This document shows positions 11,717 through 13,844 of a DNA stretch of 64,000 bases, piece after piece; the stretch's first letter is position 1, and each line of letters opens with the position of its first letter. Below the pieces are notes generated by a model. That model saw only the letters and a list, made by a program, of their open reading frames with translations, did not search any database and was not told the DNA's origin. Made by a program: the position numbers and the translations under genes. This stretch comes from an uncultured Candidatus Saccharibacteria bacterium (GTDB taxonomy: Bacteria > Patescibacteriota > Doudnabacteria > UBA920). The stretch is taken from the NCBI GenBank assembly GCA_964521955.1, contig CAZFTX010000003.1:1517-65516 (forward strand), written 5' to 3'.

Positions 11717-12646
11717 CTATATACCCGCCAACTTTTTTAAAAATACTTTAATTCTTTGATTTTTTAAAAATGTTTTTTTTGCCCAAGTAAGCATAAAACT
11801 ATAAACAATCCCCCAATAAAAACTAAACCACAACTTAAATTTAGAATATTTAATACCGTATAAATTAAAAATCCAAAGCATCCCCTCTTGGGTAGACCTT
11901 GCTCTTTTTGTCACTGTTTCAAGTCCCGGAAAACTGTCCCAACGTATGTTGTCTGCCCTAACCTTTACCAAAGGCTTGGCTACCACACATGCTGGTAAGT
12001 CTTTAGCTCCTTTTAAAATAACATACAAATGCATAGTCTGTGTTCCCACAAACTCTTCTTTACCGCTTAACGAAAGCCATACTTCTCTTTTAAAAATTTG
12101 GCAAGAAAGCCCACCAAAATACCCAACTAAATTTGTATAGTTATCTATACTTTTTACAAAATCAGAAAGCTTAGGAAAGATCTGGTCTTTTAAGATATGT
12201 AAATTTGGTTTGCTTACAACCGGTTTAATTAGTTGGTGGTCATAGCCCCAAGCATTGGCCAGCAAATAACCAAATTTATGCTCAGCAAGTATGTTTAAAA
12301 CATAAGCAAGCGAACCTTCAAACAAAGCATCATCATCTCCAAGCATCCAACAGTATTCCCCCTTTGCAAAAGGTACTAATTCTAAAGCATTTTTATCATA
12401 TCCCAAATTTATTGTATTCTTTCTATAAAAAATATTTGGATATTGTTTTTGAAAACTTTTTACCACTTCCTCTGTGTTATCTGTGCTTCCATTGTCTGAA
12501 ATTACAATCTCTACTTTATCTAAAACCTCTGTGTCTTTAAATTGAACTACTATACTTTCAAGACAAGTTGGTAAAAAGTCGGCCCTATTATATGTAGGAA
12601 TGCAAACACTAAGTAAGGGATTATTCATACTGGGAAATGAACTCAA
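11717..12646 (-). CDS. Glycosyltransferase family 2
   Basis: 309 aa; 'LLSVCIPTYNRADFLPTCLESIVVQ...VISDNGSTDNTEEVV'. Confidence 0.8.
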   Translation of the reverse strand: MSSFPSMNNPLLSVCIPTYNRADFLPTCLESIVVQFKDTEVLDKVEIVISDNGSTDNTEEVVKSFQKQYPNIFYRKNTINLGYDKNALELVPFAKGEYCWMLGDDDALFEGSLAYVLNILAEHKFGYLLANAWGYDHQLIKPVVSKPNLHILKDQIFPKLSDFVKSIDNYTNLVGYFGGLSCQIFKREVWLSLSGKEEFVGTQTMHLYVILKGAKDLPACVVAKPLVKVRADNIRWDSFPGLETVTKRARSTQEGMLWIFNLYGIKYSKFKLWFSFYWGIVYSFMLTWAKKTFLKNQRIKVFLKKLAGI

Positions 12647-13844
12647 GAAAAGTTTTTTCTAAATATTGTATTTGAGTAATATTTAAGCCCTGATGCGCTC
12701 CCAAAACCAATGCTTGGCGCATAATTGTATCTGTGTTTGGGTAAGAGTTAAAAGGTAAGCGTTTTTGAATTTTCAAAAAAGCCGGCTGTTTTAAAATATT
12801 TCCTGTAAACACTGGTCTAGTTTGAATATTTCGACTTTCCAAAAACTTTACTAAACCAAAGCGGGAAAAGGGACTCCCGGGTTTAATGATTAAAGGAAAA
12901 GCCAGCCAAACCACGTCCGCTTTTGAATTTTGTTTTCCTAAATAAAAATATTTCTCAAACTTTGAAAAAAACTTATACAAATGATTAAAATTCGACTGTC
13001 TAATTTTTACAAACTTTGGAAATTTCTTTAATTGCTCCAAAGCAAAAGCGGAAGAAATTTCTAATGGTAAAAAATTATAACCAATTTCGCTAAAAACAAA
13101 CTTTTCGTCATAAGGTACACCTCCAAGCTTGCTTCGAAAACGATTTTTCAACTGTTCAGAGTCTGACTTTTCACCAAACAAACTGCTGCGTCTTCCCCAC
13201 CCACGAAGCACCACTAACCTTTCCGCCCATTCTGGATTGTTTACGCATATCATTCCCCCACCCCCAGCACCGTTTATTATGTGTGAACCATAAAAAGAAG
13301 TTACGGAAATGTCAGTCATTAATCCGGTTGGCTTGCCTTTGTATTTAGCTCCCAAAGTATCGCAAGAGTCTTCTATTAAAAACAGTTTATGCTTTTTTGC
13401 TAGTTTGTTTAAACGCTCCAATTCAGGAATATTTCCCATAAGCGAGGGAATCATAAGCGCACGAGTCTTTTTTGAAATTGCCTTTTCTACTTGGTCAACG
13501 TTGACCTGAAAAGTTTGCAGGTCAACATCCACAAAAACCGGAACCAAACCTTTTTGAACTATAGGTGCGACAACCGTAGAAAAAGTCAAAAGTGGAGTTA
13601 TAACTTCACTGCCCTTTGGTAAGTTTAAAAGTTCAAAAGCAAGTAAATTAGCACTACTGCCAGAGTTAACCATGACTCCATATTTTTTACCAAACATTTT
13701 AGCAATTTTTTGTTCAAACTCTTTAGTCTTTTCCCCTAAAGCTGTATTACCTTCCAAGACTTTCACTACAGCTTGAATTTCTTCTTTTCCATGTACGGAA
13801 AAACCATAAGGAACTCGGATATTTTTACTGTTTTTTGCTTTCAT
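12621..13844 (-). CDS. PLP/PMP-dependent NDP-4-keto-6-deoxyhexose 3-dehydrase (RfbH/DdhC/ColD family, DegT superfamily)
   Basis: 407 aa. Matches RfbH (E1) as recalled: 'VNSGSSANLLA', 'GLVPVFVDVD', 'LIEDSCDTLG', 'QTRPVFTGNILKQPAF'. His rather than Lys at the cofactor position ('SFYGSHII...GGGG'). No Cys cluster for an Fe-S centre. Confidence 0.65.
   Translation of the reverse strand: MKAKNSKNIRVPYGFSVHGKEEIQAVVKVLEGNTALGEKTKEFEQKIAKMFGKKYGVMVNSGSSANLLAFELLNLPKGSEVITPLLTFSTVVAPIVQKGLVPVFVDVDLQTFQVNVDQVEKAISKKTRALMIPSLMGNIPELERLNKLAKKHKLFLIEDSCDTLGAKYKGKPTGLMTDISVTSFYGSHIINGAGGGGMICVNNPEWAERLVVLRGWGRRSSLFGEKSDSEQLKNRFRSKLGGVPYDEKFVFSEIGYNFLPLEISSAFALEQLKKFPKFVKIRQSNFNHLYKFFSKFEKYFYLGKQNSKADVVWLAFPLIIKPGSPFSRFGLVKFLESRNIQTRPVFTGNILKQPAFLKIQKRLPFNSYPNTDTIMRQALVLGAHQGLNITQIQYLEKTFLEFISQYE

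Follow-up and report, generated by a model that had tools for sequence, protein, structure and literature searches.

A gene on the reverse strand of a 64,000-nucleotide stretch of DNA from an uncultured Candidatus Saccharibacteria bacterium (contig CAZFTX010000003.1; the whole stretch is called the window below, with positions counted from its first letter) probably encodes a cytidine diphosphate (CDP)-4-keto-6-deoxyglucose 3-dehydratase that depends on pyridoxamine/pyridoxal 5'-phosphate (PMP/PLP), needs no iron-sulfur (Fe-S) cluster and would perform ColD-type chemistry on an E1 scaffold. C3 deoxygenation has two known solutions: PMP plus Fe-S radical chemistry, as in E1 (AscC/DdhC/RfbH; the CDP-6-deoxy-L-threo-D-glycero-4-hexulose 3-dehydrase of Yersinia and Salmonella; 3bcx) and SpnQ (the TDP-4-keto-2,6-dideoxyglucose 3-dehydrase of the spinosyn pathway), and PLP/PMP alone, as in ColD (WbdK; the GDP-4-keto-6-deoxy-D-mannose 3-dehydratase; 2gms, 3b8x). 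What we observe here is the family and fold, a histidine at the position of the cofactor lysine, the loss of the cysteine ligands, and close homologs encoded beside a CDP-glucose 4,6-dehydratase; the substrate and the dehydratase activity we infer. Proteins of this type are referred to as class C.

The open reading frame (ORF) starts with ATG, encodes 407 amino acids, and belongs to the DegT/DnrJ/EryC1/StrS superfamily of fold type I PLP proteins by both Pfam score (DegT_DnrJ_EryC1, PF01041, 263.5 bits against a cutoff of 19.8, 4e-78) and fold. It contains the four blocks named in the initial annotation of this DNA as shared with RfbH/DdhC: SGSSANLLA (residues 61-69, nt 13638-13664), VPVFVDVD (101-108), LIEDSCD (156-162) and RPVFTGN (343-349). 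E1 is the best match in both sequence and structure. Ranked against PDB sequences, E1 of Yersinia pseudotuberculosis (3bcx, wild type; 3bb8, H220K) scored 255 bits at 37% identity, ahead of ColD (208 bits) and of Lys-type sugar aminotransferases (at most 160 bits). The top NCBIfam model was the RfbH equivalog NF011936, at 355.9 bits under a cutoff of 423, which leaves the protein outside that equivalog. An AlphaFold2 model (mean pLDDT 82, pTM 0.83, low confidence at residues 217-258) matched E1 best in Foldseek (TM 0.84, 35% identity) and ColD second (TM 0.79), among many DegT-family structures at TM 0.75-0.84. The nearest characterised proteins are the His-type enzymes E1 and ColD, and not the Lys-type aminotransferases that the initial annotation had considered as an alternative.

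The column of the catalytic histidine is well fixed. In a HMMER alignment SFYGSH of the target lies opposite SFYPAH of E1, and the AK of the H220K structure 3bb8 pins the column as His220, which bears out the earlier assignment of a histidine to the cofactor-lysine position. Conservation was followed in two sets, the best 120 homologs (69-97% identity, 400-410 aa, several Patescibacteria lineages; hereafter the close homologs) and a representative search with one protein per 50%-identity cluster (1120 clusters at E <=1e-30), of which the best 150 were sorted by signature. Histidine occupies the 220 column in all 120 close homologs and in 43/43 class C representatives. Replacement of the Schiff-base lysine by histidine is the hallmark of sugar 3-dehydratases (PMC8987622; bioRxiv 10.1101/2021.09.04.459008), and the target bears it. 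Its other catalytic residues are kept as well: D159, S183, D162 (E1 D194) and Y185 (E1 Y217). Of the residues listed as dehydratase-determining, D194, Y217, H220 and F345 (bioRxiv 10.1101/2021.09.04.459008), the target matches three (D162, Y185 and H188). The F345 position is Leu314, and leucine is found there in 120/120 close homologs and 35/43 class C representatives. The residue before the histidine is Ser187, as in ColD, where E1 has Ala219, and the Glu of the E1 GEGG motif (E226) is Gly or another small residue in class C. Class C is in this respect a residue mosaic, with E1-like D194, Y217 and WGR/RF loop frame and a ColD-like Ser before the catalytic His.

The ligands of the E1 cluster were derived from column conservation. 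Four alignment columns, and no more, reach 89% Cys or above (89-98%) in a set of 61 E1-type sequences; they correspond to E1 residues 193, 251, 253 and 261. They agree with the ligand numbering C193, C251, C253 and C261 and the motif C-X57-C-X1-C-X7-C, which we take to be those of Agnihotri 2004. They also agree with the four-Cys ligand motif for the [2Fe-2S] cluster confirmed in a review (PMC8987622). In 43 class C representatives the same columns are 77%, 0%, 0% and 0% Cys, and no other column reaches 80% Cys. Opposite C251/C253/C261 the HMMER alignment places Ser/Gly/Leu of the target, and two MAFFT alignments place Ser/Leu/Leu or Leu/Gly/Leu there; none of these alignments with E1 brings a cysteine to these positions. 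The whole protein contains two cysteines only, Cys161 and Cys200. A cluster held between subunits by these two was considered and rejected, as Cys161 is present in only 77% and Cys200 in only 33% of class C representatives. Neither the four-Cys motif of E1 nor that of the SpnQ-type [2Fe-2S] enzymes is found, and the protein is predicted to be unable to hold the [2Fe-2S] cluster. The initial annotation was right that a Cys motif is lacking, three of the four ligands being gone, and wrong to place that motif at the C terminus, since it is central in E1 (residues 193 and 251-261 of 437).

The loss extends far beyond this gene. All 120 close homologs lack Cys at the 251, 253 and 261 columns and keep a highly conserved replacement loop; retention of this signature over several lineages makes selection evident. 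Three signatures could be told apart among the representatives. The E1 type (DWGRDCWCxPGxDNTCGKRF with SFYPAHHITxGEGG) comprised about 60 clusters, 36-68% identical to E1, and the ColD type (AHGWxR with SFYFSHHITTIEGG) about 13. All of the top 16 matches, and the majority of the top 40, carried the class C signature ([GSD]WGR...SE...RF without Cys, with SFY[GA]SH[IV]I..G.GGM). A tree built by neighbour joining placed the target and the other class C representatives, about 45 in all, in a single clade distinct from the groups of E1 type and ColD type, with a few other Cys-less lineages scattered elsewhere. Monophyly of class C is likely, and only likely because that tree carries no support values. 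The Cys-less state appears from these alignments to be the signature of a very large conserved clade rather than a one-off loss in this gene. The proteins go under inconsistent public names ("CDP-6-deoxy-D-xylo-4-hexulose-3-dehydrase", "E1", "NDP-hexose 3,4-dehydratase", generic aminotransferase). As a separate observation, the E1-type homologs P0178, P0180, P0187, P0192, P0218, P0247 and P0255 carry intein-like insertions, roughly 470 aa long in P0180 and 340-400 aa in the others. Most of them fall precisely within the loop that binds the cluster, following WGR(D/E)C; that of P0180 lies after the catalytic His motif.

Set side by side with the characterised enzymes, the target shares with E1 the His at the lysine position, the equivalents of D191, D194 and Y217, the WGR...RF frame and a similar loop length, and its close homologs share the CDP-glucose pathway context. 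Unlike E1, it has no C251/C253/C261 equivalents, Ser rather than Ala before the His, Gly for Glu226 and Leu for Phe345; it is also about 25 residues shorter at the N terminus, stays under the RfbH cutoff and has no ddhD/ascD in the window. With ColD it has in common the lack of an Fe-S cluster and the Ser-His dyad. It differs from ColD, to which it is about 33% identical, in belonging to another clade and in having WGR rather than AHGW, a longer loop, and Asp rather than Glu at E1 D194; ColD has an IEGG motif, a substrate derived from GDP-mannose and a gene that adjoins gmd. The target is not a member of the ColD clade, and the gmd neighbour in the window is another DegT paralog. SpnQ, comparable by description only, is likewise His-type and without a dedicated E3, but keeps its four-Cys [2Fe-2S] and needs ferredoxin/flavodoxin reductase systems (PMC8987622), while the target has no such Cys ligands.

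Gene context links class C to CDP-glucose. In locus L011 (73% identity) the class C gene runs directly on to a cytidylyltransferase-like gene (261 bits, cutoff 300) and a CDP-glucose 4,6-dehydratase gene (463 bits, cutoff 278), after which come RmlC (157 bits, cutoff 156) and further short-chain dehydrogenases/reductases (SDRs). Locus L017 of Candidatus Azambacteria (70% identity) has the same succession, class C directly followed by a cytidylyltransferase-like gene (285 bits, cutoff 300) and CDP-glucose 4,6-dehydratase (481 bits, cutoff 278). This order is the layout of an ascarylose (asc) or ddh module without ascD/ddhD, and it strengthens the CDP context proposed in the initial annotation. 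Natural fusions point in the same direction. Class C is fused to a 4,6-dehydratase-like SDR in P0121 and P0122, to an N-terminal SDR of less certain type in P0128 (partial GDP_Man_Dehyd and RmlD-like matches), and to an RmlC-like 3,5-epimerase in P0126. P0176 combines class C with RmlC-like and RmlD-like SDR domains, P0167 carries an RmlC-like domain and a weak partial Epimerase-family match, and P0190 is a fusion to an RmlD-like 4-reductase, with P0154 similar but a partial match. These partners support a putative role in a deoxysugar pathway, and none of the class C fusions examined contained a ferredoxin or flavin reductase.

Within the window itself, the rfbF and rfbG genes on which the earlier proposal of a CDP context had drawn are present, on the same strand as the target and 6-9 kb upstream of it, although their scores stay below the equivalog thresholds (Table 1). 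A fusion of the two activities is presumed to supply CDP-4-keto-6-deoxyglucose. The cluster also encodes a carboligase dependent on thiamine diphosphate (ThDP) that matches JanthE far better than any acetolactate synthase. JanthE has been described as YerE-like (PMC12188165), and YerE, the founder of this group of enzymes, attaches the two-carbon acyl branch found in yersiniose A to its acceptor CDP-4-keto-3,6-dideoxy-D-glucose (PMC9306805). Since that acceptor is the product expected of a CDP-sugar 3-dehydratase, the window holds a plausible consumer of what the target would make. Our own regular expression for the ThDP-binding motif gave no match in 17366-19177.

E1, ColD and SpnQ all form a PMP ketimine and then eliminate the C3 hydroxyl (PMC8987622), and from its His base and intact PMP-binding residues the target would be expected to do likewise. 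Two routes onward are documented. E1 and SpnQ carry out one-electron reduction via the enzyme's own [2Fe-2S] cluster (PMC8987622), whereas ColD and a Campylobacter heptose enzyme hydrolyse the ene, regain PMP from glutamate and release ammonia (PMC8987622, PMC10440746). Because a protein with two non-conserved cysteines cannot follow the [2Fe-2S] route in its known form, we favour the ColD-type route for the target, with ColD as the presumed mechanistic model, and for the hydrolytic resolution, the amino donor and the downstream steps we infer the following course. PMP would condense with C4 of CDP-4-keto-6-deoxy-D-glucose to give the ketimine; PMP would then be deprotonated at C4' by His188, with departure of the C3 hydroxyl to give a 3,4-ene intermediate. 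With no cluster to deliver electrons, the ene intermediate would be hydrolysed as in ColD to PLP and an enamine, whose tautomerisation and hydrolysis would yield CDP-4-keto-3,6-dideoxyglucose and ammonia. An amino acid, probably L-glutamate, would convert PLP back to PMP by transamination. The CDP-linked product would go on to the cluster's YerE-like ThDP enzyme and SDRs, and the adjacent, translationally coupled glycosyltransferase of family 2 (GT2) would transfer the finished sugar.

The lack of a reductase gene adds little to this proposal. As noted in the initial annotation, no E3 gene is visible: ORFs of at least 150 aa in the window contain no Fer2, FAD_binding_6 or NAD_binding_1 domain, the domains of E3/AscD. 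A scan of the window for the plant-type ferredoxin motif returned a single match, in a 77-codon stop-free segment, which was taken as spurious. Loci L011, L014 and L017 have no E3-type gene within 10 kb on either side of the class C gene. The same is true, however, of the Cys-bearing E1-type loci L021, L022, L024 and L025 within the recovered DNA (1.2-8 kb on each side, two of the loci being very short). In enterobacteria ddhD belongs to the ddhDABC module (PMC5399914), and SpnQ uses general cellular reductases and has no dedicated E3 (PMC8987622). Because Cys-bearing loci, too, often lack an adjacent E3 and SpnQ draws on general reductases, absence of E3 is weak evidence, and the argument for an Fe-S-free enzyme rests on the missing ligands.

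Several observations weigh against the proposed function. The tree that defines class C is a neighbour-joining tree lacking support values, and at E226 and F345, both of them conserved sites, class C matches neither E1 nor ColD. In the window the target lies 6-9 kb downstream of the rfbF/rfbG-like genes behind its own promoter-like site, and the RfbF- and RfbG-like domains there fall short of the equivalog cutoffs. Class C in the syntenic Saccharibacteria loci L002 and L014 is accompanied by genes for a C-methyltransferase and a GFO/IDH/MocA oxidoreductase in place of rfbF/rfbG, and family members may accordingly vary in the nucleotide or sugar they use. A possibility that we consider doubtful, though it is the strongest of the alternatives, is a different substrate or reaction: another NDP-4-keto sugar (dTDP-, GDP- or UDP-linked, 2-deoxygenated or C-methylated), SpnQ-like transamination, or elimination elsewhere. 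The nucleotidyltransferase near class C in L014 and L002 is not RfbF-like, its best model being MurU-like at 120 bits; the RfbH equivalog cutoff is missed; and E226 and F345, where class C has changes of its own, belong to the active site or its surroundings. On the other side stand the Lys-to-His exchange, a dehydratase hallmark (PMC8987622; bioRxiv 10.1101/2021.09.04.459008), the operonic association of homologs at 70-73% identity with a genuine CDP-glucose 4,6-dehydratase, fusion partners that are enzymes of 6-deoxyhexose pathways, and a separate ColD-like gene in the window for the GDP branch.

A reductive mechanism of the E1/SpnQ type, in which PMP is retained and the 3,4-ene is reduced by a partner although the dehydratase holds no cluster, is unlikely. 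The sequence is nearer to E1 than to ColD, with E1-like equivalents of D194 and Y217, and SpnQ shows that such an enzyme can work without a dedicated E3 (PMC8987622), yet each of the two reductive enzymes characterised depends on a four-Cys [2Fe-2S] cluster of its own (PMC8987622), and three of the four ligands are missing throughout the clade. The partner could be a general ferredoxin/flavodoxin system, the fused SDR domains or the GFO/IDH/MocA protein of L014. SDR fusions are frequent, and in L014-L016 the GFO/IDH/MocA gene (9006-10004; 9168 in L016) lies directly upstream of class C, overlaps its start by 4 nt and follows a TylC3-like C-methyltransferase gene. The fused SDRs are nevertheless 4,6-dehydratase-like or RmlD-like and are explained by ordinary pathway steps, and the window contains no GFO/IDH/MocA gene. 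We know of no precedent for hydride reduction of a PMP-glucoseen. There is a slim chance that class C embodies a third way of C3 deoxygenation, with PMP kept as in E1 and the ene reduced without Fe-S, for example by NAD(P)H hydride through a partner oxidoreductase, which could be one of the fused SDR domains or the product of the overlapping GFO/IDH/MocA gene in the Saccharibacteria loci; Glu226 to Gly, Phe345 to Leu and the conserved acidic Cys-free loop would then be adaptations to the partner. That the gene is a degenerate, inactive E1 remnant which lost both cluster and function is scarcely credible. A cofactor site essential in E1 is gone, but the ORF is intact, full-length and 69-97% identical to 120 homologs across lineages, its cofactor and catalytic residues are invariant, the replacement loop is conserved, and the coupled downstream GT2 gene forms a pair with it that is conserved in other loci.

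Table 1. Features of the target gene and of the surrounding glycan cluster (window positions; scores in bits).
Feature	Position	Strand	Remarks
Target gene	12621..13844	-	407-aa His-type DegT-family protein, E1-like, without [2Fe-2S] cysteines (class C sugar 3-dehydratase-like)
His188 codon	13281..13283	-	opposite E1 His220 and ColD His188, where aminotransferases carry the cofactor lysine
Cys161 codon	13362..13364	-	equivalent of E1 C193, sole E1 ligand kept of four; Cys also in ColD
Target loop WGRRSSLFGEKSDSEQLKNRF (residues 216-236)	13137..13199	-	in place of the E1 cluster-binding loop WGRDCYCAPGCDNTCKKRF; zero Cys; strongly conserved in the clade
Promoter-like site	13878..13906	-	sigma-70-like TTGACC, 17-nt spacer, TATAAT, 11/12; ends 34 nt upstream of the ATG; consensus match only
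GT2 glycosyltransferase	11717..12628	-	probable ATG at 12628; 8-nt overlap with the target stop
SDR epimerase/reductase	15287..16180	-	homolog in L002 and L014 (203)
HAD-hydrolase	16167-16802	-	after the YerE/JanthE-like gene
DJ-1/PfpI	16815-17381	-	after the YerE/JanthE-like gene
YerE/JanthE-like ThDP carboligase	17366..19177	-	JanthE 8rph 431.6 versus 274 for the best acetolactate synthase
Second glucose-1-phosphate cytidylyltransferase-like gene	19944..20738	-	TIGR02623 234 (cutoff 300)
Cytidylyltransferase-like + CDP-glucose 4,6-dehydratase-like SDR fusion	20745..22592	-	615 aa; TIGR02623 275.7 (cutoff 300), TIGR02622 198.5 (cutoff 278); best models
Sugar C-methyltransferase	22659-23774	-	
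Fcl/ColC-like SDR	28628-29560	-	GDP-L-fucose synthase model 442, under cutoff 500
Second His-type DegT, ColD type	29565-30728	-	AHGWDRSL; best PDB match ColD 201; adjoins gmd
Gmd	30725-31807	-	colitose-like GDP module, 28628-31807

The target probably starts its own transcription unit, as suggested by the promoter-like site. Inspection by eye picks out, at 13915-13990 (-) between ORF 14088-14768 and the promoter-like site, a long inverted repeat rich in GC (CGTCCGGGAAGGAAGTTAAG...CTTACCTTCCCCCGGGCG) with a run of T after it; this resembles a large-loop terminator, and a terminator scan did not report it. Class C and GT2 genes are likewise paired in L014 and in the Patescibacteria/Saccharibacteria loci L001-L004; the gene table of L014 records the 8-nt overlap, and the ORF coordinates of L002 are compatible with it. 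A contig scan gave four close loci, six others being distant Lys-type or unrelated DegT genes of Clostridia that were left out. With L002 and L003, from metagenome-assembled genomes of Candidatus Saccharibacteria, and with L014 the window shares the order class C, GT2, then further on Bac_transf, T2SSE, T2SSF and PilM (PilM seen in the L014 gene table only), and the T2SSE proteins of the window and the syntenic loci score >1000 bits against each other. This shared order makes it probable that the window, with its GC of 36.8%, belongs to a genome of Saccharibacteria or of other Patescibacteria.

The YerE/JanthE-like gene together with the DJ-1/PfpI and HAD-hydrolase genes suggests synthesis of an acyl-branched deoxysugar by a genome of Patescibacteria type, and the SDR at 15287-16180 is a tentative candidate for a later reduction step, YerF-like or a 4-reductase. 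A 255-aa ORF after the second cytidylyltransferase-like gene (region 19184-22592 (-)) has no Pfam or NCBIfam match; by eye it is cupin-like (PWGYE...HCHP...) and may be a sugar isomerase or epimerase. Further along the same cluster a colitose-like GDP module is complete, and its ColD-type gene beside gmd, which escaped the initial annotation, places two paralogous 3-dehydratase types in one cluster. This arrangement recalls the O unit of Y. pseudotuberculosis O:6, in which colitose and yersiniose A occur together (PMC5399914).

Other parts of the window (GC 36.8% overall) yielded further observations. ORFs 14088-14768 (-), 32948-33790 (+) and 36279-36929 (+) have 49-54% GC inside a cluster of 31-37% GC and no family match, and may be horizontally acquired. 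A homolog of the first occurs in the Saccharibacteria locus L003 (71 bits); the ORF itself has no Pfam, NCBIfam or PDB match and no detectable relation to ORF 36279-36929, and the idea that this high-GC island is a structured RNA was dropped, since searches of it against Rfam (E up to 0.01) and for tRNAs were both negative. A 276-aa UDP-glucose/GDP-mannose dehydrogenase ORF at 8252-9082 (-) matches the N-terminal NAD domain in part and may be truncated or have another start; an SDR gene at 7315-8265 follows it. The region 38166-48768 (-) encodes two paralogous proteins of 736-738 aa with an O-antigen ligase/Wzy_C domain and TPR repeats, flanking an HlyD-like gene, and, upstream, a 1157-aa ORF without a Pfam match.

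How one solution to C3 deoxygenation evolved from the other is a question reportedly raised by the Liu and Holden laboratories. Class C, with an E1-like scaffold and CDP context but no cluster, is an obvious candidate for an intermediate or ancestral state; it bears on how E1 gained its cluster and makes the evolutionary question testable. "Mechanistic hybrid", the term used in the initial annotation, is a fair description of the predicted enzyme, applied to a whole large family and not to this gene alone. Characterised 3-dehydratases in a 2022 review comprise E1, ColD and SpnQ only (PMC8987622), and our full-text literature searches found no paper on a Cys-less CDP-type 3-dehydratase or characterising class C. 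Because ColD provides a precedent, the reading of class C as an Fe-S-free 3-dehydratase is plausible rather than astonishing. The E1/E3 pair is hard to reconstitute in vitro; attempts by one group to prepare it in active recombinant form failed, and the cluster was suspected of being dysfunctional (PMC7851689). If class C proves to be a single-protein CDP-sugar 3-dehydratase that is insensitive to oxygen, it would be a useful tool in the synthesis of CDP-paratose, tyvelose, abequose, ascarylose and yersiniose-type sugars. For the organisms themselves, it would mean that many bacteria, including Patescibacteria with their minimal redox repertoire, make 3,6-dideoxyhexoses and their branched derivatives without E1/E3.

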